Of a stretch of DNA of 64,000 nucleotides, positions 1-61,729 are shown in pieces. Numbering within the stretch: position 1 is the first letter of the stretch; every line of letters starts with the position of its first letter. The stretch lies in IMG/VR virus record IMGVR_UViG_3300045988_157791, one strand, 5' to 3'. This DNA comes from a virus (Duplodnaviria > Heunggongvirae > Uroviricota > Caudoviricetes). The position numbers and the translations under genes were made by a program. The notes beneath the pieces are model-generated. The model made no database searches and had not been told where the DNA came from. It saw only the letters and a list, made by a program, of their open reading frames with translations.

Positions 1-54
1 ACCGCTGACATCCTGCTTACAAGGCAGGCGCTCTACCAACTGAGCTAAACCGGC
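1..54 (-). tRNA. tRNA-Thr (anticodon UGU), 3' part cut by window edge
   Basis: Reverse complement reads GCCGGTT-TA-GCTC-AGTTGGTA-GAGC-G-CCTGC-CTTGTAA-GCAGG...; anticodon loop gives UGU. Differs from the host thr tRNA I recall, so probably phage-encoded. Confidence 0.75.
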
Positions 55-58
55 AATT

Positions 59-145
59 TGGTGGGGAGTGATGGAGTCGAACCACCCGAGTCGCAATGAC
101 AGTAGATTTACAGTCTACCCCGCTGCCCCTACGGACTAACTCCCC
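59..145 (-). tRNA. tRNA-Tyr (anticodon GUA), class II with long variable arm
   Basis: Reverse complement GGGGAGT...GTAGA-CTGTAAA-TCTAC...GGTGG-TTCGACT-CCATC-ACTCCCC-A-CCA; anticodon stem-loop, T-arm and acceptor stem pair correctly. Confidence 0.75.
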
Positions 146-150
146 TAAAT

Positions 151-225
151 TGGCGATGGTGGGTGGATTCGAACCACCGACCAGTTGGTTAACAGCCAAC
201 TGCTCTACCGCTGAGCTACACCATC
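151..225 (-). tRNA. tRNA-Asn (anticodon GUU)
   Basis: Reverse complement GATGGTG-TA-GCTC-AGCGGTA-GAGC-A-GTTGG-CTGTTAA-CCAAC-TGGTC-GGTGG-TTCGAAT-CCACC-CACCATC-G-CCA; complete cloverleaf. Confidence 0.85.
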
Positions 226-7132: not shown

Positions 7133-7175
7133 GTGCTTTCCTTTGTTTTTTAAACAAATTGTTTTCTAGTATTAG

Positions 7176-9018: not shown

Positions 9019-9378
9019 TTAACCTTTCTTCATCAACTCTCGTTTGATTTCATCGGTACGCATCGTGACATCGGCAGCGGTGATCGCCTCATTCAATTTC
9101 ACGATGTCCTCGATTTCCTGCGGTGACTTCTCTGCCAGATGGAAAATGGCTGCTCGAATCACGTCAGAACGAGTGAACTTCTCGAAGCGAGGGATGAACT
9201 TCATCATCTCCAGCAGTTCGAAGTATTCGTCCTCCAGTGACATTGTGCGGCTTTTAATTTTCTCTTTGCCACGAGTCGGGCGTCCCTGTGGTCTGACTGG
9301 TTGGCGCAAAGGAGTTGTGTTCTTAGCCGGTGCATCAGGCTCTTTGCGCTTTGCTAGGTCACCCATTTTCATGGACAT
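9019..9378 (-). CDS. ParG-like partition/centromere-binding protein (ribbon-helix-helix C-terminus)
   Basis: Directly downstream of the ParA-like gene (start/stop abut at 9378); basic disordered N-terminus plus RHH-like C-terminal segment. Confidence 0.5.
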   Translation of the reverse strand: MSMKMGDLAKRKEPDAPAKNTTPLRQPVRPQGRPTRGKEKIKSRTMSLEDEYFELLEMMKFIPRFEKFTRSDVIRAAIFHLAEKSPQEIEDIVKLNEAITAADVTMRTDEIKRELMKKG

Positions 9379-10046
9379 TATTCTTCTTCCTCCAGACTCA
9401 ACAGATAATCTACAAATTCTTCAAACTCGGCTTCCGCCTTTTTGTCGCGCTCGCTACCGGTCATTTCAAAGATAGAACGACCAGACTCTTCCGCATCATC
9501 ATAGACGTTGCGGTTATATAGATTGACTGGCGCAGACTCGATTCCAAACGTCTCAACAATCTCTTTAGCCGCCAGAATGCGAGACACTTGTGATGGCAAA
9601 GCCGGGCACTGGTTCATGACCGCGCGGACCTTCACTTTATCGTTTACATTGCGAACATTGTCGATAATAGGATCGATGTCACGTAAAGATTTCAAATCAC
9701 GACGCTTAGGACGCAGCGGGATAATGATAACGTCAGCCATCAGCATCGCTTGTCGCTGAATTTCGGAGTCGAAGCCACCAGCATCTACCACTACAAACTC
9801 AGCTCTACCCTGAAGCGATTTTAGGTGCTTAATGATGTCATCCTGAACGTATGCAAAAGGAATCAGCTCAAGGTCTTCGTTCTGTCGACGGTCTTCACAC
9901 CAGCTCGTTGTCGTGCGCTGAATATCTATATCGGTAATATAAACCTTCTTCTTCTTTTTGACTTTCAGGCAAACGGCAATTTGCTGGGCAACGGTGGATT
10001 TGCCAGGCCCGCCCTTTGTGCCGCCAACCACAAAGATCTTGGTCAT
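9378..10046 (-). CDS. ParA-family partition ATPase (small type Ib-like)
   Basis: Deviant Walker A GGTKGGPGKST near the N-terminus and VVVDAGG motif; 222 aa. Confidence 0.7.
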   Translation of the reverse strand: MTKIFVVGGTKGGPGKSTVAQQIAVCLKVKKKKKVYITDIDIQRTTTSWCEDRRQNEDLELIPFAYVQDDIIKHLKSLQGRAEFVVVDAGGFDSEIQRQAMLMADVIIIPLRPKRRDLKSLRDIDPIIDNVRNVNDKVKVRAVMNQCPALPSQVSRILAAKEIVETFGIESAPVNLYNRNVYDDAEESGRSIFEMTGSERDKKAEAEFEEFVDYLLSLEEEE

Positions 10047-10078: not shown

Positions 10079-10112
10079 CTGAAACAACTTGTTTTCTTAT
10101 ATGTGATATAGC
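10079..10112. promoter_or_regulatory. palindromic operator GAAACAACTTGTTTTC upstream of the parA-like gene
   Basis: Near-perfect palindrome about 35 bp upstream of the ParA start; same motif recurs upstream of terS and several accessory genes. Confidence 0.5.
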
Positions 10113-38598: not shown

Positions 38599-39230
38599 TA
38601 TTCGTCCTCCCCTTCACTTCCAACATCTGTCGCATCAAATTCGCTTAGAGCTTCTTCTTCCAACGTCTCAAGCAATTCGTCATCGATGATTTCAGGCTCG
38701 TCGTCTTCCTGACGTAATTTCGCCACCTGGGAAGGCGTAAGCTCACCAAATACCAGGTTCGGAATTTCTTCCTCGTCATTTTCCGCATGATCCATGCCCA
38801 ATGCTTTGGACGAAACTTCAAAGCATTTTGCAAGGGTATTACTGGCTCTCTGTAAGCTCTTGAGAGAATCCTCAATCGCCCCTAAAGGCTTACCCTCACG
38901 TTTGGCCGTAGTGACTTCGACCATCACCATCTGCCCCAACGCATACGCCCAGCCGTCATAACGTGTACGACGTTCTTCTATCTTTTCCGCACGGGCTTTA
39001 GCGCGAAGCTCTGCGTCAGATTTAAGAGACTCACGAACCATCTTCCCAACAGAGTCCGCGCCTTTCTCTAATCCTCGCTTTTTGAAATGTCTGGAGAGTG
39101 TTTCACGACGAATGCCGTACTCTTCCTCCAGCTTTGAGAGTGTATATTCGCCTGACGTCCATTTGGCTTCAGCTTCGGCCCACTCCGCTGGTGTCAGGCG
39201 AGTTTTTACCTCGTCTTTTTCGACCGTCAT
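38598..39230 (-). CDS. terminase small subunit (HTH-containing)
   Basis: N-terminal helix-turn-helix-like LSKLEEEYGIRRETLSRHF, very acidic C-terminus, coupled to TerL. Confidence 0.55.
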   Translation of the reverse strand: MTVEKDEVKTRLTPAEWAEAEAKWTSGEYTLSKLEEEYGIRRETLSRHFKKRGLEKGADSVGKMVRESLKSDAELRAKARAEKIEERRTRYDGWAYALGQMVMVEVTTAKREGKPLGAIEDSLKSLQRASNTLAKCFEVSSKALGMDHAENDEEEIPNLVFGELTPSQVAKLRQEDDEPEIIDDELLETLEEEALSEFDATDVGSEGEDE

Positions 39231-39269
39231 AGATCCCTCTAAAACACACAGAGCGCGTCCATGCGCTCT

Positions 39270-39313
39270 AAAACAACTTGTTTACTGCATCTGCTAACCA
39301 ACTTGTTTTCTGG
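39270..39313. promoter_or_regulatory. two AACAACTTGTTT operator-like half-palindromes upstream of terS
   Basis: AAAACAACTTGTTTA and CCAACTTGTTTTCTGG, same family as the parA and accessory-gene operators; adjacent hairpin AGAGCGC-GTCCAT-GCGCTCT at 39251-39271. Confidence 0.45.
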
Positions 39314-39346: not shown

Positions 39347-39401
39347 CCTGCTTCCGTATATATTTAATAAGTTACTTATTATTTATATATACAGATGCAG
39401 G
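39347..39401. repeat. 55-bp extended palindrome, copy B
   Basis: CCTGCTTCCGTATATATTTAATAAGTTACTTATTATTTATATATACAGATGCAGG; one mismatch to copy A. Confidence 0.7.
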
Positions 39402-39425: not shown

Positions 39426-39692
39426 TTACATCACCAGTAACTTCGCTTTGGCTCGACCTAAAGTGGTTAACCCAAGAGTCCGGCGGTGATAGCGATTGTC
39501 ACTGCGTTGGCGCGTATGCCCTTTCTCCACCAGCCCCTTTTTTATCAGAGCGCGAATTGAGAACTGGATACTTTGCTTGGTTGTCTTGTACGGCAAAACT
39601 TCAAGCAATTCGTCCAGGTCAAGTAGATGACCTCGCTCATAACCGAGATTGAGCGTTTTGATGATGTCCTTTTGTTTATCGGTTAACGTCAT
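39426..39692 (-). CDS. small winged-helix-like DNA-binding protein (88 aa)
   Basis: Last gene of the five-gene operon; basic C-terminus. Fold assignment tentative. Confidence 0.4.
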   Translation of the reverse strand: MTLTDKQKDIIKTLNLGYERGHLLDLDELLEVLPYKTTKQSIQFSIRALIKKGLVEKGHTRQRSDNRYHRRTLGLTTLGRAKAKLLVM

Positions 39693-39701
39693 GGCAAATC
39701 C

Positions 39702-40592
39702 TTATGCCGGTAAAGCAATTTCTAACGGTTTATCCAAAGGTTGTTTGTCGAATGCCAGCAGTGGCAGCGTGTCAGGCAGTCGACGGCCAAAGTCAGGGTT
39801 TCGGTACACACCATACAACGGAGACGTAAAGCTCAGGTTGTGAATGTCCTTGAGCAGCTTCACAATGCTGGCCTCGTCCACCAGACTGTCGGCAATGTCC
39901 TGAATCGTCGTGCCACGATTCCGCCCAGCTTTTGCCAGGGAACTGTTCTTGTGGTAGTCCGCCACCAGATCACGCAGTGCACGGCGACGACGAGACTCGC
40001 TCATAGCGAACAACTCTTTGACGATCGCCTCGTTATCACCCGGGTCGGAGCGGAAATGGCGCTGGAACACACGCAGTGCACTTTCATAGCTCTTCGGTCG
40101 CTCAGGGCGGATGAACTTAAACCCTGCTTTCATGGCGAAGGGATTGTATTTGCTCATCGATGACTGGATCTCAATGATTGGCCGGTCATGCATCCTGCTA
40201 ACCAGGTTAATCATTCGATAAGAGACGCCTACGCCACGATACTGAGTATCCACAACTGAGCGACTGATCACCGCAAAGTTGTTATTCACGTACCGACCCC
40301 AGTACTGGTTAGCCACGGTGGTATTAGTGGTTGGTTTCAACTTAGGAAACATGCGGTGGCGAGGTGCCAGCAGTAGTTTCGGATAAGCCATAACCACGAC
40401 GCCCACCAGACGGTCATCAAGTTCGCAGCGATAGTAAGTTGGCGCGAAAGGTTTGCCGTCTGTTTTGTAGTGAAGCGACTTAAGAGCGTGCCAGTCCTCT
40501 ACAGTTCCCTTTGTGACTGTCATTCGTTCCAGAAAGTCCAGATGACGCGGAAACTCTTCAGGGCGGTAGCGTTTAATGATGATGTCCGTCAT
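39702..40592 (-). CDS. GNAT-like acetyltransferase-fold protein (296 aa)
   Basis: Putative acetyl-CoA binding motif TQYRGVGVSYRMINL; 4-nt overlap with the upstream ATPase gene. Confidence 0.4.
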   Translation of the reverse strand: MTDIIIKRYRPEEFPRHLDFLERMTVTKGTVEDWHALKSLHYKTDGKPFAPTYYRCELDDRLVGVVVMAYPKLLLAPRHRMFPKLKPTTNTTVANQYWGRYVNNNFAVISRSVVDTQYRGVGVSYRMINLVSRMHDRPIIEIQSSMSKYNPFAMKAGFKFIRPERPKSYESALRVFQRHFRSDPGDNEAIVKELFAMSESRRRRALRDLVADYHKNSSLAKAGRNRGTTIQDIADSLVDEASIVKLLKDIHNLSFTSPLYGVYRNPDFGRRLPDTLPLLAFDKQPLDKPLEIALPA

Positions 40593-41254
40593 GAATGGAC
40601 CTCATCATGACTACCATTGTGATATTCCACCTTCACGCGTTCTTTGTAGTGCTTGGTGATCTGCATATCCGGGCGCAGCGCGTTCTTCAGGTCTTCGTGA
40701 GTCGTCGCCACCATTACCGTCGCACCAACCTTTCGAGCGGCACGCTGGAGGTTAGATGCCACAACCTGAGCGGTTACACGGTCTAAAACAGCACCGAACT
40801 CGTCAGCAGCCCACACTTTAGCGCCTGACTCAATCAGTTTGGCAATCTTGAGACGATATTTCTGACCGTCTGACATTTCAGAAGGCTTGCGAACAAACAG
40901 ATATGCATCGTTCAGACCAGCCATAGATAACAATCCAAGCGCATCACTGGTCGTTTTGCCCAACTGATCGATGACGTTAACCTCATTATCGAAGGTAAAA
41001 TCATCGATGGAGGCTACAGACAGCCCTTCATCCTTCATCTGTCGTTGCAACTCGCGCAGCACAACGGATTTGCCGGAACCGGATTGGCCGGTGATGTACA
41101 CCACATCGCCCTGCTTCACTTCCAGCTCCAGATTGTCGTAAAGCGTCCACTCTTTTTCGTCCAGACCAAGCCCGAACGACTCAGCGATTTCCAACGTGCG
41201 CGTGGTTTTATTTACGCGTGTCTGAAACGATACGTTGATGATGTATTTGCTCAT
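40589..41254 (-). CDS. minimal ABC-type ATPase (221 aa)
   Basis: Walker A GQSGSGKS, ABC signature-like SDGQKYR, Walker B WAADEFGAVLD, H-loop TTHEDL. Confidence 0.65.
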   Translation of the reverse strand: MSKYIINVSFQTRVNKTTRTLEIAESFGLGLDEKEWTLYDNLELEVKQGDVVYITGQSGSGKSVVLRELQRQMKDEGLSVASIDDFTFDNEVNVIDQLGKTTSDALGLLSMAGLNDAYLFVRKPSEMSDGQKYRLKIAKLIESGAKVWAADEFGAVLDRVTAQVVASNLQRAARKVGATVMVATTHEDLKNALRPDMQITKHYKERVKVEYHNGSHDEVHS

Positions 41255-44243: not shown

Positions 44244-44522
44244 ATGAGCGAAAAGAAAACAACTTATTGCCAAGTGGCATTGTCTGATAAGGCCAATGAA
44301 AAACTTGGAAAATTTCAAATAAAACTCAAAGAGAAAAAAATCAAGATGTCTAAGGCTGAAGTTATCAATGCCATTCTGGAGACGATGACTATGGCTGAAT
44401 TTGACAAAGTCACATCTGCCGTTGGGGTTTCCGCTAAGACGCGTGAGAAAATCATGCGCATCTATGAGAACTCCAATATGACAAAAAAAGATCTAGAGGA
44501 AATACTGAGCAGGTTGCCGTAA
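44244..44522 (+). CDS. small ribbon-helix-helix-like protein (92 aa)
   Basis: Starts 2 nt after the helicase stop; KMSKAEVINAILE resembles an RHH strand-helix. Confidence 0.4.
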   Translation: MSEKKTTYCQVALSDKANEKLGKFQIKLKEKKIKMSKAEVINAILETMTMAEFDKVTSAVGVSAKTREKIMRIYENSNMTKKDLEEILSRLP

Positions 44523-46442: not shown

Positions 46443-46964
46443 ATGGTTAAAGACATCACCTACGGCATACCGGCTGAAGTCTGGCCGCGAGACTACGAAC
46501 ATGCTGAAAACATACTTATGTTCTGGCGGAAGAACAACATTCCTGTAAGAGTCACGCTTGAAGACGGTCAGGTGTTTTGCATGTACGTTCAGGGGACAAT
46601 GCCTTCCCGCAATAAGCTAGATTTATGCCCGCTTCCATATGATAAAGAAAATCGTATAAGACTCCCACTTGAGCGCATTAGCACAATTGAATCAGGTGTA
46701 ATCGATGGCATTGCTCGCGAGTTCAAAGGTAGGCTAACAATACATCCAGACTATGTTGACAATCAGCCATCACGCCGTGACTTTTTTGCGATATGTCGCA
46801 AGGCTTATCAAAACGACCAATCTATAAGGGTCTACATGGCAGACGGTCGTGAAATAGAAGGGGTGTCAAGAGGCGTTGATGCTTGTCAGGTCACTCTTAA
46901 GTTAGAAGACGGCAGAAAAATACTTGTTTTCTTCGATTGGGTTGAACGAATCCTTCCATTTTAA
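46443..46964 (+). CDS. hypothetical protein (173 aa)
   Basis: ORF followed by a clear intrinsic terminator. Confidence 0.5.
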   Translation: MVKDITYGIPAEVWPRDYEHAENILMFWRKNNIPVRVTLEDGQVFCMYVQGTMPSRNKLDLCPLPYDKENRIRLPLERISTIESGVIDGIAREFKGRLTIHPDYVDNQPSRRDFFAICRKAYQNDQSIRVYMADGREIEGVSRGVDACQVTLKLEDGRKILVFFDWVERILPF

Positions 46965-48266: not shown

Positions 48267-48683
48267 TGTCTTTGACTCACTCCAACAACATAAAAATAAG
48301 CGCCAAAATAACGCCATAAACGCGCTTTTATATCCTTGCCAGTACATACCCATTACTTAACACATTAACGCGCTTAAAATGCGTTATATTGCGCTATAAC
48401 GTATGGCTAATCATTGGCTTTTAGTCTTGCTATGTGATCCGCGTTTATTTGTCGGCGCGGATCGGCATTTTGTGTTGTTTTGTATCCGCTCGCATATGAT
48501 TGCCACGTTGGGCAACGTGTACGCGCTTACAGTGATTTACCCACGGATTCACATAATCACATAGCGAAAGCTATCTGGATGGCCCAGGGGCTGAAACCCC
48601 CACCAGCGATACCCCAGCGCCGCTACGCAATTTCTGGCGCGATTCCGGGTTTCTCCCGCTCAGTTTTCTACATAAAGGCGAAT

Positions 48684-48803
48684 GCAGCCGTTTCCCGAAA
48701 AAATCCTGGCCGTTTCCCGTCGGCTCATGAATGCGTTCCTCGCCGTTTCTGAAAATTTCCCTGCGGCAGCTGGTGGCTATAGAGAAAGGGCCGTTTCTGG
48801 CCC
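48684..48803. repeat. iteron-like direct repeat array 1 (four units of GCCGTTTCCCG-AAAA type)
   Basis: GCAGCCGTTTCCCGAAAA, CTGGCCGTTTCCCGTCGG, CTCGCCGTTTCTGAAAA, GGGCCGTTTCTGGCCC at roughly 22-30 bp spacing. Confidence 0.6.
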
Positions 48804-48812
48804 TCTTCTCAG

Positions 48813-49295
48813 TTACACGCCATCAAGGATGTGGATGCGGTTGCTTGCGTATACATTCAGCATAAAGTTAGCGCAAAACAGTTTCCATGTGTCAACGCCA
48901 GCGGTATACGTAATGTTTTTGCATTTAATTGCATTGTTGGCGATCCGCATCCCCTGCGATACTGCTTCATCGTCGGAAAATTTGAACGACGATTGAGTTT
49001 TAATCCAGACAGAAATCTGCGTAGCGAACTCAATCAGCTTGGACTGGCAGAATCGCCCGGAGCGCACCGGAAAGACGAACGTTCCGAATCCAGAATTTAC
49101 CACATATGCTTTCTCAAATACCCGCGAGTAACGACGATTGCCAATGATGTTGCGTACAATAATGCATTTTTCTTGTTCTGACAGTTCTACCGTCTCATTG
49201 TGACGCCAGGCACCAAGTACTCGTTTTTCAATGTCAGAGAACGTTACAGCGATATTGCCATGTGCGGGTGCGTTTACAGTAGCGATAAAATTCAT
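48813..49295 (-). CDS. hypothetical protein (160 aa) with own operator cassette
   Basis: ATG at 49295 preceded by a conserved cassette (GATAAT-like box then AGAAAACAATTTGTT palindrome). Confidence 0.5.
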   Translation of the reverse strand: MNFIATVNAPAHGNIAVTFSDIEKRVLGAWRHNETVELSEQEKCIIVRNIIGNRRYSRVFEKAYVVNSGFGTFVFPVRSGRFCQSKLIEFATQISVWIKTQSSFKFSDDEAVSQGMRIANNAIKCKNITYTAGVDTWKLFCANFMLNVYASNRIHILDGV

Positions 49296-49335
49296 GATTA
49301 ATTCCTTATCGTAAATAACAAATTGTTTTCTTGTT

Positions 49336-49385
49336 GGCGTTAATTATCGTTGTACGAATAAGGCGTCAAAGTGGAAAGTTGCGGT
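49336..49385 (-). promoter_or_regulatory. conserved promoter/operator cassette
   Basis: AACAAATTGTTTTCTTGTTGGCGTTAATTATCG...GAATAAGGCG; near-identical cassettes at 49798-49853, 51451-51502, 51934-51988 and 54735-54810. Confidence 0.5.
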
Positions 49386-49499
49386 AGCCGGACGGGAACA
49401 GGTGGGTTTGTCGGTTGCCTGGAGGTAAGAGGTTGGTGTTTTTAGCCTGAGGGAAACAGGATGGTCATTTAAGGCCACCAGCATTGGTGGCCTTAGTCT

Positions 49500-49781
49500 T
49501 TAGTGGAGCAGACCGATGTCGATGGTATCCCCTGAATCACCCACACGGATCATCAGCATGGCGAAGGCGTTTAGTGGATAACTGGCGTGCCATTCAGGGA
49601 AGCGGTCATCTCGCATGAAGTCGGCAATGTCGTAAACGCAGCCCTCAAAGTGGAAGAATCGCGTGCTTACCTGCTCGTCATATTCCACATGATCCATTTC
49701 TTGCTGTTCTGTTTCCGGCAAGTCCAGCCATGATTCAAGGAATACATTTTGTGCTTTAGGGGTAATGGTGAAATCAGTCAT
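49500..49781 (-). CDS. small acidic protein (about 93 aa)
   Basis: Likely start MTDF at 49781 immediately downstream of a conserved cassette; Asp/Glu-rich. Confidence 0.5.
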   Translation of the reverse strand: MTDFTITPKAQNVFLESWLDLPETEQQEMDHVEYDEQVSTRFFHFEGCVYDIADFMRDDRFPEWHASYPLNAFAMLMIRVGDSGDTIDIGLLH

Positions 49782-50116
49782 GAGCATATCCTCACTGCGT
49801 AAACATGTTGTTTTCTTGTTGGTGTAATTATCGCAGTGTAGATAAGGCATAAAAGAAGTTAATACAGGCTGAATACACAAGAAAGGTTCTGGAAGTTGAT
49901 AACCAGGTTTCAAACTAACCTTCGGTTATTAAAAGTCATTTAAGGCCACCAATGCTGGTGGCCTTAATAATTATCGCCCGATTACGCTAAGGATCTTTTC
50001 CTCAACTGATTTGTTGTTGCGACTAAACTGCCTTGCGTATCTGATGACAGAAGAGGCGTTTTGCTTTCTGACCATCTCGGCTCTTTCCTTCAGGCGTTTC
50101 TTGAAATCGCCCATAT

Positions 50117-50533
50117 TTACCACCAGGCACGGAACGTCAGTCTATTATTGTGAAAGTCGTGGTTCTTAATCAGATCTTCCACAAGCTCTTTCAACTCCCC
50201 CACATCATGCCAGTAACCTTCATCGTACTCCTGACTGCCGAAGAAAAAACCTTCCCGGGTAGGCAAGTACTCTTCGCAATTACTTTCGTTTATGTGCATC
50301 AAATGAGCCTTCAGAAAACAAATGTCATTCATCGTTAATTCTAAAAGCTCACAATTTTCGACTTCACCTACGTTGCGCTCCATCCACCCAACGAGCGCAT
50401 TGAACTTACGGAAGTAAGCAACCTGCTTTCTGGATGCCTCGTTATTCAGATCGTTTTTAGGCTGCGTCTCGATATAGATATCAAGTCCCATGATGGTTTC
50501 CTTATTAAGTTGCTTCAGTGAAATCATTTTCAC
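50117..50533 (-). CDS. hypothetical acidic protein (start probably MGLDIYIE near 50491)
   Basis: ORF with AGAAAACAGATTGTT palindrome at 50549-50563 upstream. Confidence 0.45.
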   Translation of the reverse strand: MKMISLKQLNKETIMGLDIYIETQPKNDLNNEASRKQVAYFRKFNALVGWMERNVGEVENCELLELTMNDICFLKAHLMHINESNCEEYLPTREGFFFGSQEYDEGYWHDVGELKELVEDLIKNHDFHNNRLTFRAWW

Positions 50534-50608
50534 AAATCAGATAAGGCAGAAAACAGATTGTTATCGGGCATAAGAAAATGGCGCGGTTTACGCGCCATTC
50601 AAAGAGGA

Positions 50609-51070
50609 TTAAGCGAATACGCTTTCAGGGATTAAGGTGTCAGCAGGAATGCCGGAGGTAATGCGCAGGCCGTACTGACCAATCCAGGTAGTGTTGGTAT
50701 TCAGGCTGGAGGCGAATACGGTGTTAACCATATTCATCATGGTTTCAAACACCTCTTCATCAACCTGGCGGAAGTAGTTCTCGATTTTCAGCAGCAGCGG
50801 GTCAGTTGCATCGAAAATAGACTGGTATTGAGTCGCGTACTCGCCGCCGGAGGCATCACCTTTACGCACGATCGTACTGGCCTGGACTTCGGCACCAGTT
50901 TCGGTGTTGTACGTAACAACGGTGATTTTTGCCACATTCTTACCTTCGGCGGTTTCAGAGGCATAGTAAACATCAACTGTCAGTTTTTCGCGTTTAACGG
51001 TCATTTCACTCTCCGTAGTGTATTGGTTATTTTTATATTCTATGATCGTAAGTATGTACTTACAATACAA
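50609..51070 (-). CDS. hypothetical protein (start probably MTVKREK near 51004)
   Basis: TAAGTATGTACTTAC motif and a hairpin immediately upstream. Confidence 0.45.
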   Translation of the reverse strand: MYCKYILTIIEYKNNQYTTESEMTVKREKLTVDVYYASETAEGKNVAKITVVTYNTETGAEVQASTIVRKGDASGGEYATQYQSIFDATDPLLLKIENYFRQVDEEVFETMMNMVNTVFASSLNTNTTWIGQYGLRITSGIPADTLIPESVFA

Positions 51071-51130
51071 AAAAGCCCCGTAAGGATGGCGGGGCTGTCG
51101 TACGGTCGACTAATTACCACTTGCACATTA

Positions 51131-51472
51131 TCAGGCTATTGCCATCACTGATGCTCTCTGAATCTCTTGCTGGGCCACGCGGTTAACTTCCATCAAAGCC
51201 AGTTCGAGCTGATGTTCCGGCCACATTCTTTGAAATGCCACCCAGCCTTTTCCACGCTGGCGACGAACATTCATTACATAACGAGTAAAGGTGTTTTTAT
51301 CGAAAGACACCGCTGTTTCACGGAATAGACGAATAGAGGTTCCATTGGCAACGATATCCAGCAAAGTTAATTGAGCAACCAGTGCAGGCTTCTCTTTTCT
51401 CTTCTGGTCTTTGTCCAGACCAAGAACCAATGATTTTTTCATCACAACTCCGTAAACAACTTGTTTTCTCAA
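51131..51472 (-). CDS. hypothetical small basic protein (start probably MKKSLVLG at 51442)
   Basis: Conserved cassette AACAACTTGTTTTCTCAATGGCGTAAATAATACC directly upstream. Confidence 0.45.
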   Translation of the reverse strand: MRKQVVYGVVMKKSLVLGLDKDQKRKEKPALVAQLTLLDIVANGTSIRLFRETAVSFDKNTFTRYVMNVRRQRGKGWVAFQRMWPEHQLELALMEVNRVAQQEIQRASVMAIA

Positions 51473-51595
51473 TGGCGTAAATAATACCAGTAAGAAAACG
51501 GCTACAAAGCATATTGATCAGGTGCATGAGCGATATGCAGGTTCTTCCCTGCGGCTATAGAGAAATTAAGCCAGCAAAGCTGGCTTTGGTTGGGG

Positions 51596-51946
51596 TTACT
51601 CGAATACTTCAAGAAACTCCTGAACGTCCCAATGCTGGACGAGGTGAAGATAGACCTTAGAAATCACGTCATTTTCGCTATCGCATGTGAAGTAGTACTT
51701 CTGGCTGCGGTTGTATGTGTCCACACAAAATTCGCTCATATCCATAAAGTCAGCATCTTCACCCATGTCGCAAATCATCAAAGCAGGTGCGTCATCACGA
51801 GTCATCAGCTCAAGCACCCACCGCGAATTGATCAGAGTGGAAGACCAACCTTCTAACTCATAAAACTGATCAAACTCTTTTTGAGTTAATTTCTTGATTT
51901 GGTTGATGTCGATATTTGCAAACATAAAGCAACCCTTAAACAACAT
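51596..51946 (-). CDS. small acidic protein (start probably MFANIDIN near 51925)
   Basis: Conserved cassette AACAACATGTTTTCTTATTGGTGTTATTATCGC directly upstream; Asp/Glu-rich. Confidence 0.45.
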   Translation of the reverse strand: MLFKGCFMFANIDINQIKKLTQKEFDQFYELEGWSSTLINSRWVLELMTRDDAPALMICDMGEDADFMDMSEFCVDTYNRSQKYYFTCDSENDVISKVYLHLVQHWDVQEFLEVFE

Positions 51947-52283
51947 GTTTTCTTATTGGTGTTATTATCGCAATAACGCATAGGCGAAAAAGGATTTTAT
52001 TCCGGTGAATGTGGTTTTGGCAGTGAGTTTTCAGGTTCAGTACCGAGTACACTTTTTACATTATTCTGATTTAGTAGCCGAAGGTGGCTGGTGGGCAGAA
52101 TAATCATCTCCCCGAAAACCTACTGAAATCGATTGTGACCCGTTGGCTGTCTGGCACAATTACGCTGTAGCTGGGCATTCAGAGGGAATCCAGCGGTAAG
52201 TAAGTTCGCCTGCACGTGAGCGCCTCTCTTCTTCCCGCACATTACAGGTGGGTAGCCGCAACTCTCCCTCTCGCTATACCGGT

Positions 52284-52420
52284 ACGCCGCCGTTCCTGAA
52301 CCGGCATCGAGCCTTTTCCCGAAATCCACACAGGCAACTCGACCGTTTCCCTGAAAACCTCCAGCCGTTCCCCGAAGGCAACCCAGCCGTTTCTGTAGCG
52401 GGATGCAGCCTTTTCCCTGT
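52284..52420. repeat. iteron-like direct repeat array 2 (about six units)
   Basis: CGCCGTTCCTGAA, GAGCCTTTTCCCGAAA, CGACCGTTTCCCTGAAAA, CAGCCGTTCCCCGAAGG, CAGCCGTTTCTGTAGC, GCAGCCTTTTCCCTG; same orientation as array 1. The overlapping track ORF 52120-52578 is probably not a gene. Confidence 0.6.
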
Positions 52421-52579
52421 ATGGACCGAAGGCTGACCGTAGGGGTGTTACGGGGGATAAAATCAGGAGTTGAATAAATACGAAAAAGGAGGCGACACCC
52501 CTCCTTCCCTCCCAACTTATACATACCTGTCTTGTTCGCTATACATGTTGTGTTTTCTTCGTGTTTTATCTGTTTCAAC

Positions 52580-53400
52580 CTCTCTATAGGCGTTAATGCT
52601 CACTCCTTCCAGAACGTTCTATACGGCGACTATTTCTGTTGGTGAATTGGGTGTGTTGTTTTCCCTGTCGGTGTATGTGGTTTCGTTCGTTTTGCGATGG
52701 TTCTTCTATGGGGTGTTCTCGTCGTTTTGGTGATTGTTCTTCTCCGTGTATGGAGTAATGGCAGGTGGGCGATTCCTTTCGTTATTGTGTTTGAGTTGTT
52801 TGTCTGGAGTGCGTGAAGGGCTTTTGTAGTTATTCGTGTATTGGGTAATGGCGTTTCCCGTGATTGTTATGTTTCGTGTCTTTTGGGATTGAGAGAAACC
52901 TTGCGGTTACAGGCTTCGTTGGGGTTTCAGTGATTCTGATGTTTCTTCGCTGTTTGGGTAATGGCGTGTCGTGGGTATCGCGCGTATGAATGTTTTCGGA
53001 TTGCCTGTGAAAGTTAGGTTGGTTGTCCGGTAGCCTGGGAAGAAGAGGTGGGTCTTTTCGGTAGCCTGCCATAAAGAGGTTGGTTGTTTTTGGTAATGGC
53101 ATATGTGTTATTTAGTTGTTTTGTTATACCTGAAAATAAGTTGTTTATATGGTTATGTAACGCAACGGGAGCGATTTTGAGCGTGTGTTTTTGTTGGTAG
53201 TGTGTTGGGTCGTCTGTGGTGAAAATTGGACGCTGTGGCGCTGTCTGCTGCGTAGAGTTACGGGTATAAGAAGTGATGTGTGAAAACGTCAATTTTTTAG
53301 ACCAAATCGGGTGAAAGCGTTGACGTTTCGTTGATCTGTTATTTAGTTGTTTTCTTATTTGTATAAACAACCATAACCTATTGATATTTAATGATGTGAT
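52580..53400. repeat. about 800-bp strongly GT-skewed non-coding region with dispersed GGTAATGGC repeats
   Basis: Plus strand is G+T-rich throughout; GGAGTAATGGCAGG, TGGGTAATGGCGTT, TGGGTAATGGCGTG, TGGTAATGGCATAT at about 100-bp intervals; minus-strand ORFs are low-complexity. Confidence 0.55.
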
Positions 53401-53489
53401 TGCTGGTATGGGAGGGGAGTAGTGGCGATCAACGGATTCTTATAGAAAAGAATCAAATTGTGACCGCCATTATCAATGAGTTGCAACCG

Positions 53490-54059
53490 TTAGTTGTTCA
53501 GATAAACATTTGGAACACGGACGTAGAAGTTCCTGTCGCCGGTAAGTTCCAGAGTAATGTTAATGTCATTACCATTGTCTAGTGTAGCCGTTGCTCTATA
53601 GAACTTATCCGTCACCTTGTCCTCTATTGTCACCTTCATACATTTTGGTGCAGTCGAACCGTTATTCTCTTTCAGAATAGTTGTCACGAGAGGGCAGGCT
53701 GCTTCTTCAAGAGCAACCTCGTCCTTGTGTGGGATGCCGATGAAGATAACCCAAGCCAGCGACGCAACGATTATGATAAATGGCACTCTGCTGCCTTTTG
53801 TAATAGTCGCGCGCTTCCAGAGATAGACAGGCAGGAGGAATACCCCCCATAGAATTGAAGGTGGTTCACAGCCAGACTCCGATAGAGCCATTCTGTCAGC
53901 TACTAACAAACCGATGGTAGTTACACCCCCAATTATAATAGCGTAATTGGTATACTCTTCCGGCGATACTCCAAAGAAGAAAGGCATGAACGCTAGAATC
54001 CACGCATAAATGTTATTCAGAGGTTTTGTTTGTTGGTTCTGGGTTTCCATCACATCCAT
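53490..54059 (-). CDS. integral membrane protein (189 aa)
   Basis: Several hydrophobic helices (IYAWILAFMPFFFG, IIIGGVTTIGLLV, LWGVFLLPVYLW, FIIIVASLAWVIFIGI) and a hydrophilic C-terminal domain. Confidence 0.5.
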   Translation of the reverse strand: MDVMETQNQQTKPLNNIYAWILAFMPFFFGVSPEEYTNYAIIIGGVTTIGLLVADRMALSESGCEPPSILWGVFLLPVYLWKRATITKGSRVPFIIIVASLAWVIFIGIPHKDEVALEEAACPLVTTILKENNGSTAPKCMKVTIEDKVTDKFYRATATLDNGNDINITLELTGDRNFYVRVPNVYLNN

Positions 54060-54211
54060 TCCATCACATAAAAATCGCGTTTATATATTATCAATTTTCT
54101 CACTTGTATAACCTAAATACGCATCCGTTTATCAATCCACCTTCCACAAACATCAGCTTTAGCTATGAAAAATAACAATCTCAAAGTGAAAACCATTATC
54201 ATAGGAAACGA

Positions 54212-54397
54212 TTAGATGAGATGGTCTAATTCATCATCTATCATTGCTTTAACACTTGAGTCATTAACCCCGTATTGATTTATGAACCGTTTCAGCTCCG
54301 GTGAAAACTGAAGGTAGATATCGTGAGCGTTTTTCACTGTAGGTTCAACGCCACGCATTTCAAGCGCCTTTAGTAGATATGAGTCTTCTTTAAGCAT
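54212..54397 (-). CDS. hypothetical small protein (61 aa)
   Basis: Short ORF downstream of 54434-54742; weak evidence. Confidence 0.3.
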   Translation of the reverse strand: MLKEDSYLLKALEMRGVEPTVKNAHDIYLQFSPELKRFINQYGVNDSSVKAMIDDELDHLI

Positions 54398-54433
54398 AAA
54401 TTCTCCGTTGTCTAGTATGAAGCGATTGCCGGA

Positions 54434-54742
54434 TTACCATTGCCAGCACTCTAGCCCTTCAACGACCGGTGCACCACAATCAAAATGTACAGAGTCAAAG
54501 CCTACATCAAGTACTTTCTGAATGTTCGCAATCGCGCCCTCGGATATACCATATCGACGCAACTCATCTTTCCAGTCATCGTCCTGTAACCCGGCGTGGA
54601 CAATGCAACCGTACTCAATTTGTGAAACCCAATCCAGCTCATTGCTTGCGATCATGAATCGGCGAGCATCTTCCTCTGATGTATGAGATGAGCTGATCAA
54701 TGCCACCTGGTAGGCTTGGGTAATGTTCAACATTTCAACCAC
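54434..54742 (-). CDS. small acidic protein (start probably MLNITQAY near 54730)
   Basis: Two operator palindromes (AAAACAAGTTGTTTT and AGAAAACAAATTGTTTT) at 54737-54802 upstream. Confidence 0.45.
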   Translation of the reverse strand: MVEMLNITQAYQVALISSSHTSEEDARRFMIASNELDWVSQIEYGCIVHAGLQDDDWKDELRRYGISEGAIANIQKVLDVGFDSVHFDCGAPVVEGLECWQW

Positions 54743-54844
54743 TCCAAAACAAGTTGTTTTCTTATGTGGTTTATTATCTCCATCAACAAAAGGCAGAAAA
54801 CAAATTGTTTTAGGTACTGTGTAAATCAGAAGGGATTGTGTCTA

Positions 54845-54894: not shown

Positions 54895-56928
54895 TTACTT
54901 AACCTGGTGGCCAGGTTTAGCACCAGCATCCGGGCTTAACAGGAAGATATCTTTCCCGCCGGGGCCAGCAGCCATCACCATGCCTTCAGAGATACCGAAG
55001 CGCATTTTACGTGGTGCCAGGTTAGCCACCATAATGGTGTGACGACCAATCAGTGCCTGCGGATCCGGGTAGGCAGAACGAATACCGGAGAAGACATTGC
55101 GTTTTTCACCGCCGAGATCCAGTGTCAGGCGCAGCAGTTTGTCAGAACCTTCAACAAACTCTGCGTTTTCGATCAGCGCTACGCGCAGGTCAACTTTGGC
55201 GAAGTCGTCAAAGGTGATGGTTTCCTGAATCGGATCATCTGCCAGTGGGCCAGTAACTGGCGCGGCAGCTGCTTTCACTTCTTCTTTAGACGCTTCCACC
55301 AGTGCTTCAACCTGCTTCATATCGATGCGGTTATACAGTGCCTTGAACGGATTTACTTTATGGCCCAGCAGCGGTTGCTGGATACCATCCCAGGTCAGTT
55401 CTGTATTCAGGAATGCTTCTGCACGTTCAGTCAGTTTCGGCAGTACCGGCTTCAGGTACGTCATCAGCACGCGGAACAGGTTAATGCCCATAGAGCAAAT
55501 CGCCTGCAGATCGGCATCGCGTCCTTCCTGCTTCGCCACCACCCACGGAGCCTGTTCATCGACATAGCGGTTAGCCAGGTCAGCCAGTGCCATGATTTCA
55601 CGGATAGCTTTACCAAATTCGCGGCTTTCCCACGCTTCACCAATCACTTCAGCGGCATCAGTGAAGGTTTTGTACAACTGCGGGTCAGCCAGCTCGCTTG
55701 CCAGCACACCGTCAAAACGCTTATTGATAAAGCCAGCGTTACGGGACGCCAGGTTAACCACTTTGTTCACGATATCGGCATTCACACGCTGAACGAAATC
55801 CTCCAGGTTGAGATCGATATCATCAATGCGCGAAGAGAGTTTCGCAGTGTAGTAGTAACGCAGGCTGTCAGCGTCAAAATGATTCAGCCAGGTGCTGGCT
55901 TTAATAAAGGTGCCGCGAGACTTGGACATCTTCGCGCCGTTCACCGTCACATAGCCATGAACAAACAGGTTGGTCGGCTTGCGGAAGTTGCTGCCTTCCA
56001 GCATGGCAGGCCAGAACAGGCTGTGGAAGTAAACGATATCTTTACCGATGAAGTGGTACAGCTCGGCGGTGGAGTCTTTCTTCCAGTATTCATCGAAGCT
56101 TACGCTGTCGCCGCGCTTGTCGCACAGATTCTTGAAAGAACCCATGTAGCCAATCGGTGCGTCCAGCCAGACGTAGAAATATTTGCCCGGCGCGTTCGGA
56201 ATTTCAAAACCGAAGTAAGGGGCGTCGCGGGAGATATCCCACTGTTGCAGGCCAGATTCAAACCACTCCTGCATTTTATTTGCCACCTGCTCCTGCAACG
56301 CACCGCTGCGGGTCCATGCCTGCAACATTTCGCTGAAAGAGGGCAGATCAAAGAAGAAGTGTTCAGAATCACGCATTACCGGCGTAGCACCAGAAACCAC
56401 CGATTTCGGTTCAATCAGTTCAGTCGGGCTGTAGGTCGCGCCGCAGACTTCACAGTTATCGCCGTATTGATCTGGCGCTTTACATTTCGGGCAGGTGCCT
56501 TTCACAAAACGGTCCGGCAGGAACATGCCTTTTTCCGGATCGTACAGCTGAGAGATGGTGCGGTTTTTAATAAAACCGTTTTCTTTCAGGCGAGAGTAGA
56601 TAAGTTCTGACAACTGGCGGTTCTCTTCGCTGTGCGTCGAGTGATAGTTGTCATAGCTGATGTTAAAGCCTGCGAAATCAGTCTGATGTTCCTGACTCAT
56701 TTCGCCAATCATCTGCTCCGGTGTGATACCAAGCTGCTGAGCTTTAAGCATGATCGGCGTGCCGTGGGCATCGTCGGCGCAGATGAAGTTGACCTCGTGG
56801 CCGCGCATTCGCTGGTAACGGACCCAGACATCAGCCTGGATGTGCTCCAGCATATGGCCGAGGTGGATTGAGCCGTTAGCGTACGGCAGCGCGCACGTCA
56901 CCAGAATTTTCTTCGCGACTTGGGTCAT
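54895..56928 (-). CDS. metG: methionyl-tRNA synthetase
   Basis: 677-aa protein from [31 protein letters not shown] with class I HIGH-type (HLGH) and KMSKS motifs and C-terminal tRNA-binding domain. The track ORF extends upstream to a non-ATG start. Confidence 0.95.
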
Positions 56929-57085
56929 AGTAGGCATTACTTCTTTGTAGTGAAAAGGGGCTTGATAGTAACAAAATGGCCTTATGTCTGCCATGTGATA
57001 ACAGCATTTCTCATAAATGATTAAATGTCGTAGCTGGAGTACACTACAAGGCGACAATTGCGCAAATTAAAATAAAGGAGACGGG

Positions 57086-58186
57086 ATGAGCGAGTCCAAA
57101 TCGCCGGATGCCCTGAGAGCAATGGTAGCCGGTACGCTGGCTAATTTTCAGCACCCAACCCTGAAACACAACCTGACTACGCTTAAAGCGTTACACCATG
57201 TTGCGTTGATGGATGACACACTGCATGTCGAACTAATCATGCCTTTCGTGTGGAATAAGCCTTTTGAAGACCTGAAAGAGCAATGTAGTGGTGATCTGCT
57301 CCGTATCACTGGCGCAAAGGCTATTGACTGGAAGCTGTCGTACAACATTGCCACGCTTAAGCGCGTCAAAAACCAACCAGGCATTAATGGCGTTAAGAAC
57401 ATTATCGCCGTCAGCTCAGGCAAGGGCGGCGTAGGTAAATCCTCCACGGCGGTAAATCTGGCACTGGCGTTGGCTGCTGAAGGTGCGAAAGTTGGTATTT
57501 TGGATGCCGATATCTATGGTCCATCAATTCCAACCATGCTGGGCGCGGAAAACCAACGTCCAACCTCACCGGACGGTACTCACATGGCACCTATCATGTC
57601 TCATGGCCTGGCAACCAACTCTATTGGTTATCTGGTCACCGACGACAATGCAATGGTGTGGCGTGGACCGATGGCCAGCAAGGCGCTGATGCAGATGTTG
57701 CAGGAAACTCTATGGCCTGATCTGGACTATCTCGTTCTCGATATGCCGCCGGGCACTGGTGATATTCAGTTGACGCTGGCGCAGAACATTCCTGTAACTG
57801 GTGCGGTTGTGGTAACTACGCCGCAAGACATCGCGCTGATCGATGCGAAGAAAGGCATTGTGATGTTCGAAAAAGTCGAAGTGCCGGTACTGGGTATCGT
57901 CGAAAACATGAGTGTGCATATTTGCAGTAACTGCGGTCATCACGAGCCAATTTTTGGCACCGGTGGCGCACAGAAACTGGCCGAGAAATACAACACGCAG
58001 TTGTTAGGCCAAATGCCACTTCATATCTCTCTTCGTGAAGATCTGGATAACGGAACACCAACCGTTATTAGTCGTCCAGATAGCGAATTTACGGCTATTT
58101 ATCGTGACCTCGCAGATCGCGTTGCTGCCCAAATGTATTGGCAAGGTGAAGTAATACCTGGCGAAATCGCATTCCGCGCAGTGTGA
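57086..58186 (+). CDS. apbC: Mrp/ApbC Fe-S cluster carrier ATPase
   Basis: Deviant Walker A SSGKGGVGKSST, CSNCGHH Cys motif, divergent from metG with about 157-bp spacer, the usual enterobacterial arrangement. Confidence 0.9.
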   Translation: MSESKSPDALRAMVAGTLANFQHPTLKHNLTTLKALHHVALMDDTLHVELIMPFVWNKPFEDLKEQCSGDLLRITGAKAIDWKLSYNIATLKRVKNQPGINGVKNIIAVSSGKGGVGKSSTAVNLALALAAEGAKVGILDADIYGPSIPTMLGAENQRPTSPDGTHMAPIMSHGLATNSIGYLVTDDNAMVWRGPMASKALMQMLQETLWPDLDYLVLDMPPGTGDIQLTLAQNIPVTGAVVVTTPQDIALIDAKKGIVMFEKVEVPVLGIVENMSVHICSNCGHHEPIFGTGGAQKLAEKYNTQLLGQMPLHISLREDLDNGTPTVISRPDSEFTAIYRDLADRVAAQMYWQGEVIPGEIAFRAV

Positions 58187-58223: not shown

Positions 58224-58613
58224 CTACATCACGGGACAATCATCAAACTCGCCACTTCTTGCGTCGTTGATAATGTGAGTGATCACACCAAACACGGCAT
58301 TGCTGCCCGTGCATCCATCGTCATCCTTTGGCAATGCTTCCTTCTTACCGGTTCTTAAATCCTCCAGATGCTGACGTGGGTACTTCCGGTATCTTTTTAC
58401 GCGATATTCCCCATCCAGAGCGCATACAAGCAGAGAACCATCAACTGGGGTAAGTGAGGAATCAACCACCAGCAATGCACCCTGTAATATTCCCTCACGA
58501 TGATGACTATCAGCTGCCCGCATGAAGTAGGTCGCTGAAGGATGTCTGATTAGTTGCTGATCAAGAGAAATACGGCTCTCTGCATAATCCGCCGCAGGAG
58601 AAGGGAAGCCCAT
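58224..58613 (-). CDS. UmuD'-like S24 peptidase-fold protein (129 aa), lacks the N-terminal cleavage region
   Basis: MGFPSPAADYAESRISLDQQLIRHPSATYF... parallels UmuD from the post-cleavage Gly onward; Ser (ADSH) and Lys (RVKR) positions retained. No umuC-like gene adjacent. Confidence 0.6.
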   Translation of the reverse strand: MGFPSPAADYAESRISLDQQLIRHPSATYFMRAADSHHREGILQGALLVVDSSLTPVDGSLLVCALDGEYRVKRYRKYPRQHLEDLRTGKKEALPKDDDGCTGSNAVFGVITHIINDARSGEFDDCPVM

Positions 58614-61591: not shown

Positions 61592-61729
61592 GTGTTTTTC
61601 TCTTCTTTGCTGTTACATAAGCACTACCAAGTGCTGGTTTATTTTCACAAATAAGAAAATGTAGAAAACAATTTATTTAAGGCCATAAGTCATGGCCTTT
61701 ATTTATTCATGCAGAAGGATTTGTAGCGC

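Follow-up and report, generated by a model that had tools for sequence, protein, structure and literature searches.

The window analysed here, a stretch of 64,000 nucleotides recorded as IMGVR_UViG_3300045988_157791 (Caudoviricetes), is to judge from its sequence an Escherichia coli phage-plasmid of the SSU5 type, within the Cyrano/pHCM2/pMT1 family, and between positions 48,813 and 54,742 it carries an island of small minus-strand genes, most of whose transcription units have a 17-bp palindrome at the promoter. Most likely this palindrome serves as the operator of an element-wide regulon; each genome has about 20 copies, and they are densest in the island. The island and its flanks are 97-99% identical to non-mobilizable E. 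coli plasmids of ~110 kb, and among 5,426 complete E. coli genomes they match plasmids in 245 and chromosomes in none. Escherichia phage Cyrano is 97.8% identical across 83% of the length; Salmonella phage SSU5 and phage-plasmids of Klebsiella are more distant relatives, and PLSDB contains 730 matching plasmids (from Klebsiella, Escherichia, Enterobacter, Yersinia, Salmonella and others). Annotation of the close relatives indicates the layout of the window: replication genes occupy 1-12 kb; tail, head and terminase genes then run to terS at 39230; and beyond terS lie ParB-like and ABC genes, a UvsW-type helicase gene, an FljA-family gene (46443-46964), the minus-strand island and, beyond it, a metG/apbC pair captured from a host. 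The plus strand of Cyrano corresponds to the minus strand of the window.

Ten proteins are encoded in the island, all on the minus strand. In the direction of transcription, the first unit contains the gene of a 99-residue acidic protein (54434-54733; isoelectric point (pI) 4.3) with a C-terminal DUF5983 domain (Pfam PF19419, E=7.5e-13) and that of a 61-residue protein (54212-54397; pI 4.9) assigned to a PHROG of unknown function. Next come a 189-residue protein (53490-54059) with several hydrophobic segments; a 109-residue acidic protein (51596-51925; pI 4.2, net charge -14, PHROG-assigned) with a terminator at 51568-51586; a 103-residue basic protein (51131-51442; pI 10.5); and a 131-residue protein (50609-51004), for which the promoter scan found a consensus-like promoter of its own, TTGTAA-17-TAGAAT (51037-51065), with no operator. 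A two-gene unit (49971-50491) then combines a 124-residue acidic protein (50117-50491) with a basic 47-residue open reading frame (ORF; 49971-50114) and ends at a terminator at 49940-49967. Last are a 93-residue acidic protein (49500-49781; pI 4.2, terminator at 49469-49496), found throughout the SSU5 group including pMT1, and a 160-residue basic protein (48813-49295; pI 9.3), the product of the most conserved gene of the island, which is flanked by CAGGCTACCG and GGGAAACGG repeats that also occur in the non-coding region described below. The emphasis of the initial annotation on small acidic products holds for part of the set: pI is below 5 in six of the ten, and four proteins (93, 109, 99 and 124 residues) are strongly acidic, with pI 4.2-4.8 and net charges of -11 to -14. 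It does not hold for the three basic proteins (160, 103 and 47 residues; pI 9.3-11) or for the one multi-pass membrane protein.

The promoter cassettes that the initial annotation described in front of five minus-strand genes are present where it placed them, each with its consensus box and palindrome, and a repeat search groups four of them as one family: the 55-nt copies (at 49317, 49801, 51455 and 51939) are 60-73% identical to the reference copy, and a fifth precedes the ATG at 54733. Read in the orientation of the gene, this arrangement, here termed type A, consists of (TGn)GATAAT or TATTAT, 11-12 nt, and GAAAACAA-N-TTGTTT(AC/AA/TG), followed directly by the Shine-Dalgarno sequence and start codon. 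The palindrome itself is 17 bp long, GAAAACAA-N-TTGTTTTC, with a 7-1-7 layout. Its type A copies, located with a position weight matrix built from the window sites, all lie on the minus strand: at 54745-54761 in the first unit (score 26.0; -10 hexamer GATAAT at 54773-54778), at 51936-51952 (TGcGATAAT, hexamer at 51964-51969), at 51452-51468 (in the best-scoring class; TGgTATTAT, hexamer at 51481-51486), at 49799-49815 (TGcGATAAT, hexamer at 49827-49832) and at 49314-49330 (GATAAT at 49343-49348). The sequence AGAAAACAANNTGTTT with up to two mismatches matches the window 22 times against 1.1 expected, and the weight matrix finds 13 strong sites (score of at least 14) in the window against 0.0 in shuffled sequences. 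Among the points of the initial description to be corrected is the symmetry of the palindrome: the arm farther from the promoter is consistently degenerate, and in type A units conservation is stronger in the sense-strand half.

In a second geometry, type B, the palindrome lies exactly 17 nt upstream of the -10 hexamer, is inverted relative to type A and abuts the terminator of the preceding unit. Three minus-strand copies are of this type: one in the first unit (54796-54812; score 28.8), directly after the metG terminator; one in front of the sixth island unit (50549-50565), upstream of TGtGAAAAT (hexamer at 50526-50531); and one outside the island (61664-61680). The first island gene thus has both a type A and a type B site, 51 bp apart. 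Site centres fall near +15 in type A and near -38 in type B, positions that would suit a repressor. The upstream parts of type A cassettes (TTTTaTGCCTTAT) look to us like type B copies that have decayed, which suggests a single ancestral module for all cassettes. Among eight promoters read from the sequence (the six island cassettes and those of the units at 61672 and 7158), five have a TGn extended -10 and none has a usable -35, and for lack of a -35 every cassette is missed by a scan for consensus sigma-70 -35/-10 promoters. The units end at intrinsic terminators, two of which are 82% identical repeats.

The initial annotation treated the cassette as a feature of the island, which proves too narrow, since the palindrome also occurs at 7150, 10080, 39269, 39294 and 61664, in front of replication, partition and structural operons among others. 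Outside the island, minus-strand copies precede a DnaB-like helicase gene (7150-7166), lie in the parA promoter (10080-10096), form a pair, spaced by 25 bp, immediately ahead of terS and the structural operon (39269-39310), and precede an operon that encodes a 151-residue protein and an Ead/Ea22-like protein (the type B copy at 61664-61680). The complete Cyrano genome has about 20 sites and that of SSU5 has 20, against 0 in shuffled sequences; in both, nearly all are 18-48 nt upstream of start codons and about half are in the accessory arm. Orthologous sites in Cyrano and SSU5 precede terS (double), parA, the DnaB-like helicase gene, cobT and nrdB. The same motif is present in a Klebsiella plasmid, an Enterobacter plasmid and Yersinia pestis pMT1, and pairs of sites 51 bp apart recur in at least seven promoters across the relatives examined. 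In the 5,426 complete E. coli genomes the perfect extended palindrome is found in 962 places, of which 958 are on plasmids and 4 on chromosomes. The palindrome is thus essentially absent from E. coli chromosomes and is therefore borne by the element rather than part of a host regulon; a host transcription factor as the binder was rejected on the same grounds. A scan of viral contigs for the exact pattern returned mostly chance single matches and was uninformative, and no description of this operator was found in the searchable literature. One further copy, restricted to E. coli lineages, lies inside the 3' end of the FljA-family gene (46915-46931).

Expression in the prophage state can be read from published RNA sequencing of the LF82(Cyrano) lysogen, which gives normalised reads for each Cyrano gene (PMC9928086, supplementary table S1). 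Except for the parA operon, operator-linked genes are at the lysogen background: terS has 7.1 reads, the helicase gene 21, cobT 7.8, nrdB 12.9 and the island genes CYRAN_101, 105, 106, 108, 110 and 111 from 5.7 to 25, with a prophage median of 9.8 (PMC9928086). The parA operon is moderately expressed (50/89/55; PMC9928086), as expected of an autoregulated operon that is needed in the plasmid state. The exceptions to silence in the island are CYRAN_102, which is absent from the window, and the 47-residue ORF, CYRAN_109. The common repression suggested in the initial annotation is consistent with these background reads in a lysogen of the 97.8%-identical Cyrano, and one operator common to the island genes implies that they are presumably co-repressed. 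CYRAN_109 (49971-50114 in the window) has 58 reads, ~10 times the number for the gene just upstream in its unit (5.7), which suggests an independent small transcript ending at the terminator at 49940-49967.

Comparison with the relatives, together with the promoters and terminators, supports the view of the island as small accessory genes that are individually promoted and individually terminated under a shared operator. Coverage of the island among relatives ranges from 100% down to 12%, and only the genes for the 160- and 93-residue proteins are near-universal, pMT1 included. Breakpoints show that whole units are exchanged: one E. coli plasmid lacks exactly 49496-49934, the 93-residue unit, a segment between two repeated terminators; a Klebsiella element has the genes for the 124- and 93-residue proteins in a single operon behind a cassette that matches the E. 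coli copy; and in Cyrano 53479-54433, with the genes for the 189- and 61-residue proteins, is replaced by a different gene. Since whole units are exchanged, recombination plausibly takes place at the promoter/operator and terminator sequences that the units have in common, and new genes may join the regulon in this way. Like morons, each unit has a promoter and a terminator to itself and is found in some related phages and missing from others; the expression of the units in the lysogen (5.7-25) lies below the cutoff of 49 that the authors of the lysogen study applied to morons (PMC9928086).

A quarter of the interval is non-coding. This region of ~1.4 kb (52050-53480, minus strand) is C+A-rich on the minus strand and has no conserved ORF, and a four-way alignment of the E. 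coli, Enterobacter, SSU5 and Klebsiella sequences reveals long invariant blocks. Its elements include an operator (53132-53148), well preserved in the relatives and degenerate in the window, together with operator half-sites. Repeats are also present, namely four GCCATTACYY..ACACGGAGAAGAAC units, ACCCACCTCTT..CAGGCTACCG units and five to six GGGAAAMGG units, and a hairpin at 52483-52509 resembles a terminator. The CAGGCTACCG and GGGAAAMGG repeat types are otherwise found only beside the gene for the 160-residue protein (48680-48790 and 49379-49466). The ACA..GGA cores of the repeats resemble CsrA-binding motifs. There are no Rfam matches within the island; the region may encode a non-coding RNA under operator control, act as an origin or offer a set of sites for protein binding.

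The reading that we favour, and consider probable, is a dispersed-operator regulon that represses lytic and accessory genes in the plasmid state. The island would then be the accessory arm of the element, a tandem array of short, separately terminated transcription units, most of them driven by copies derived from a single promoter module; this module would combine an extended -10 sigma-70 promoter that lacks a usable -35 with the palindrome at about +15, about -38 or both; the same regulon would also take in the terS/structural operon, parA, the replicative helicase gene, cobT and nrdB. A dimeric repressor encoded by the element would occupy the sites in the plasmid-prophage state and block RNA polymerase, cooperatively where two sites are 51 bp apart, and upon infection of a naive cell or induction the sites would be free and the units would fire.

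The best candidate for the repressor is a putative ParG/omega-like protein of 119 residues, whose gene (9019-9378, minus strand) directly follows parA (9378-10046) with an overlap of one base; the ParA protein is of the small Walker type with ParA/MipZ/CbiA domains. The palindrome is in the parA promoter of the window, Cyrano and SSU5, and the gene for the 119-residue protein is expressed in the lysogen (89 reads; PMC9928086). The invariant segments of the protein, which are its putative DNA contacts, are an N-terminal MGDLAKR, a basic RPQGRPTRGK arm that we read as AT-hook-like, a strand SRTMS.EDE (SRTMSLEDE is the predicted strand) and a helix start TRSDVIRAAI, and the remainder is ~50% identical in Klebsiella elements that keep the operator. 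The core pattern persists at 27-31% identity, and a distant relative is labelled, in one source only, as an Arc/MetJ-type ribbon-helix-helix regulator. A distantly related SSU5-like plasmid of Pectobacterium, Drgb1 (NZ_KP942676.1), encodes a homologue that is 30% identical to the 119-residue protein; the 17-bp palindrome is absent from the 40 kb of this plasmid that were examined, and the only inverted AAGAAAAC pair there lies 80-120 nt upstream of parA. A scan of contigs with a profile of the 119-residue protein, a test of co-variation with the operator, returned close relatives only, and searches of Pfam and the Protein Data Bank (PDB) gave no sequence match to ParG, omega or KorB. Identification of this protein as the repressor is accordingly tentative, at less than even odds. 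If it is correct, partition would be tied to silencing, and a fuller scheme, which we regard as possible but less likely than not, is that in the SSU5/pHCM2/pMT1 family a ParG-like partner of ParA was recruited as the master silencer of the phage, that the palindrome spread from the par promoter to about 20 promoters of virion, lytic-replication and accessory units, that the operators may serve as centromere sites and that the island plugs genes into this circuit through recombination at the common promoter/operator and terminator sequences.

Two other small proteins of the window may bind DNA. The 92-residue protein encoded after the helicase gene (44244-44522) reads, like the 119-residue protein, as strand-helix-helix and is expressed in the lysogen (114 reads), and its presumed DNA-facing strand positions vary; the 119-residue protein thus appears the better candidate. 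The 88-residue protein encoded immediately upstream of the terS double site (39426-39692) has a weak full-length match to LexA_DNA_bind (E=0.07) and, to go by the adjacent RefSeq protein accessions, has a near-identical counterpart in pMT1; being at lysogen background (7.8), it could not by itself explain lysogenic silence. A helix-turn-helix (HTH) repressor encoded outside the window, CYRAN_45, was set aside as the direct binder because its own control region has a different palindrome, GGTAAGNNCTTACC, which by implication would be its operator.

Several points weigh against a regulon repressed by a single dimeric protein. What is observed is the sites with their geometry and conservation, their essential absence from host chromosomes and background-level reads of the linked genes in the lysogen; the argument must add to this that the sites are bound, that binding represses and that a particular protein binds, three steps that would each have to hold. 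The lysogen reads fit repression and are not discriminating, since most prophage genes are silent. The unequal conservation of the two palindrome halves is unexplained by a simple symmetric dimer. With regard to the 119-residue protein, there is no Pfam or PDB profile match, so that ribbon-helix-helix is a reading of the sequence plus one label; the half-sites in Drgb1 are arranged differently, ~30 nt apart; and the 92-residue protein, the 88-residue protein and the CYRAN_45 HTH repressor are further small putative DNA binders.

The initial annotation interpreted the island as anti-defence, and in its strongest form this explanation holds that a dedicated anti-defence or host-takeover island encodes acidic DNA mimics or other inhibitors of restriction, CRISPR or abortive-infection systems, which are expressed in a burst on entry and then commonly repressed. 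It draws on the four small, strongly acidic products (pI 4.2-4.8, charge -11 to -14), on gene content that varies between 100% and 12% of the island, on a unit structure that lets single genes come and go and on silence in the lysogen as expected of entry-phase genes; in addition, the SSU5 site at 82474 precedes a putative DNA modification methylase gene (SSU5_095), and relatives have defence systems beside the accessory arm (type I restriction-modification, DUF262). An anti-restriction or anti-CRISPR identity was not borne out, however, as no island protein matches such a family or any characterised one: searches of all ten proteins against Pfam, PHROGs, NCBIfam and PADLOC returned only DUF5983 and, for every protein, PHROGs of unknown function, with the limit that PADLOC models defence rather than anti-defence and that the searches used no dedicated library of anti-defence hidden Markov models. 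Sequence searches of the PDB with three island proteins and three candidate regulators, and two profile searches, found nothing meaningful and no solved structure that would identify an anti-defence protein. A 17-residue sub-threshold match between the 61-residue protein and T7 gp5.9 and weak matches of island proteins to Cas, Csm6 and Dsr1 were dismissed as noise. Structure prediction by AlphaFold was uninformative on this point: the model of the 103-residue protein (predicted local distance difference test (pLDDT) 78.7) is a four-stranded sheet with a C-terminal helix and no classical DNA-binding fold, with no fold match at E<0.01 and none better than E=0.03, and the 93-residue acidic protein gave a low-confidence model (pLDDT 61) and no fold match. 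The 103-residue basic protein was accordingly dropped as an Aca-like autorepressor. In homologue searches with three proteins, all families, including those of the 103- and 93-residue proteins, proved to be confined to SSU5-like elements, so that the alignments are shallow. The two most conserved island genes are near-core, pMT1 included, which is atypical for genes in an arms race; the island also comprises three basic products, a membrane protein and a quarter of non-coding sequence; and in a published DefenseFinder survey known anti-defence systems were scarce among SSU5-group elements, with Rad alone recorded, and that in a subset of them (10.1101/2025.09.12.675607). Because it is common to replication, partition and structural operons, the operator does not mark an anti-defence programme. 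An anti-defence role for the island proteins is thus unproven, a guess from size and charge, and we consider it unlikely that a dedicated island of this kind is what the cassettes define.

Two other explanations leave the island proteins aside and concern what acts at the palindrome. It could be a lytic timing switch, bound by a Cro-like early protein such as the 88-residue LexA-like one that would shut off early units or gate the late operon, with lysogenic silence imposed through another repressor upstream. The 88-residue gene adjoins the terS double site and its product is near-identical in pMT1, and CYRAN_45 is a separate HTH repressor, expressed in the lysogen, with operators of its own; against this, the 88-residue gene is at lysogen background and the same site stands on the parA operon, which is needed in the plasmid state, so that we regard a timing switch as improbable. 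Alternatively the conserved element could act on RNA, with the FljA-family protein binding the A-rich 5' end of the mRNA (AAGAAAACAA...) and blocking translation beside the Shine-Dalgarno sequence. The FljA-family gene next to the island (46443-46964, plus strand; Pfam PF03614, E=5.3e-81, residues 4-170 against profile positions 1-170 of 170) is kept in all relatives examined, including Y. pestis pMT1; its product reads as two Sm-like halves with a weak match to Hfq; and FljA is reported to prevent translation of fliC mRNA (PMC2652032). The type A element moreover lies within the predicted 5' untranslated region (5'UTR), right before the Shine-Dalgarno sequence, and its sense-strand half is the one under stronger conservation. 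Type B copies, however, are upstream of the -10 hexamer, so are not transcribed by their promoter, and are inverted; the constant distances, 51 bp between paired sites and 17 nt to the -10 hexamer, are constraints at the level of DNA; the 5'UTRs have no stable or shared fold (z -0.9 to +0.35); and a copy of the motif is absent from the fliC leader of E. coli K-12. An RNA hairpin or riboswitch was likewise rejected, there being no stable fold in the 5'UTRs and no Rfam match in the island. For these reasons (the position and inversion of type B copies, the spacings, the lack of an RNA fold and a fliC leader without the motif) a dimeric DNA-binding protein is the likely ligand, and action on RNA is in our estimation very unlikely.

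A dispersed-operator regulon of the kind we favour has precedents among phages and plasmids. In phage P1, the C1 repressor binds as a monomer to asymmetric 17-mer operators that are scattered over the genome and silences unrelated operons. The element analysed here resembles P1 in being a plasmid-prophage with one operator sequence dispersed over many promoters, which it may overlap, and differs in that the site is a 7-1-7 palindrome, often paired at 51 bp, that a C1 homologue is not in evidence, that the binder is a candidate only and that the terS/structural operon is apparently under the operator directly. KorB and KorA of RK2, omega of pSM19035 and ParG of TP228 are partition proteins that double as global repressors. 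The element of the window may belong with them: the site is in a parA-type promoter, the leading candidate for the binder is the small product of the gene beside parA, and identical sites stand at many promoters of the replicon in positions that overlap the -35 region or lie downstream. It differs from them in that each promoter has a single palindrome in place of a series of short repeats, and in that the replicon is a phage whose virion and lytic replication genes are among the targets. Morons are autonomous insertions of promoter, gene and terminator in temperate phages and are typically expressed from the repressed prophage; the island units share the autonomous structure and the variable occurrence but are at lysogen background and have one homologous promoter/operator module in common. 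Anti-CRISPR acr-aca operons and the anti-defence islands of plasmid leading regions (PMC11541004) likewise combine small, often acidic proteins of unknown function with strong promoters that carry an inverted-repeat operator, whereas here there is no HTH gene of the Aca type in the island and no recognised anti-defence gene, and the operator is common to housekeeping phage operons.

Several neighbouring features were recorded. Adjoining the island, 54895-58186 carries metG, of host type and encoding methionyl-tRNA synthetase, and a divergent apbC/mrp; of the two, apbC is expressed in the LF82 lysogen (92 reads), and metG has barely any expression there (16). A gene at 58224-58613 (minus strand) encodes a stand-alone S24 peptidase of 129 residues without a DNA-binding domain, similar to UmuD'/HumD, and its Cyrano orthologue is among the top-expressed lysogen genes (148 reads). 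The most conspicuous transcript of the Cyrano lysogen is from 40268-40822 (Cyrano coordinates), where CYRAN_43, a hypothetical gene near the integrase and HTH repressor genes, reaches ~720 times the prophage background. A nested inverted repeat of ~55 bp, rich in AT (39347-39401), lies close upstream of the double operator at terS and could be a packaging or late-control site. Three tRNA genes lie at the edge of the window (1-225, minus strand; Rfam tRNA matches, for Asn, Thr and Ser according to the Cyrano annotation). The annotation of Drgb1 includes an Hfq gene before the DnaB-like helicase gene, a Shedu SduA-domain gene within the tail cluster and a colicin-like pore-former.

Phage-plasmids of the SSU5 type occur commonly in clinical Enterobacteriaceae: pHCM2 of Salmonella Typhi and pMT1 of Y. 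pestis belong to them, as do ~110-kb plasmids from E. coli, Shigella and Klebsiella. The maintenance of lysogeny in these elements is essentially uncharacterised. A 17-bp site at about 20 promoters provides a testable map of the circuit and a handle for finding the repressor, and, as a simple sequence signature, the palindrome can help to annotate promoters and accessory units across hundreds of plasmids. The island proteins may still act in the entry phase, and the operator that they share with lytic genes suggests that they may be co-regulated with those genes rather than belong to lysogenic conversion. If the partition partner is indeed the repressor, the SSU5-type elements would represent a new coupling of plasmid inheritance to prophage silencing.

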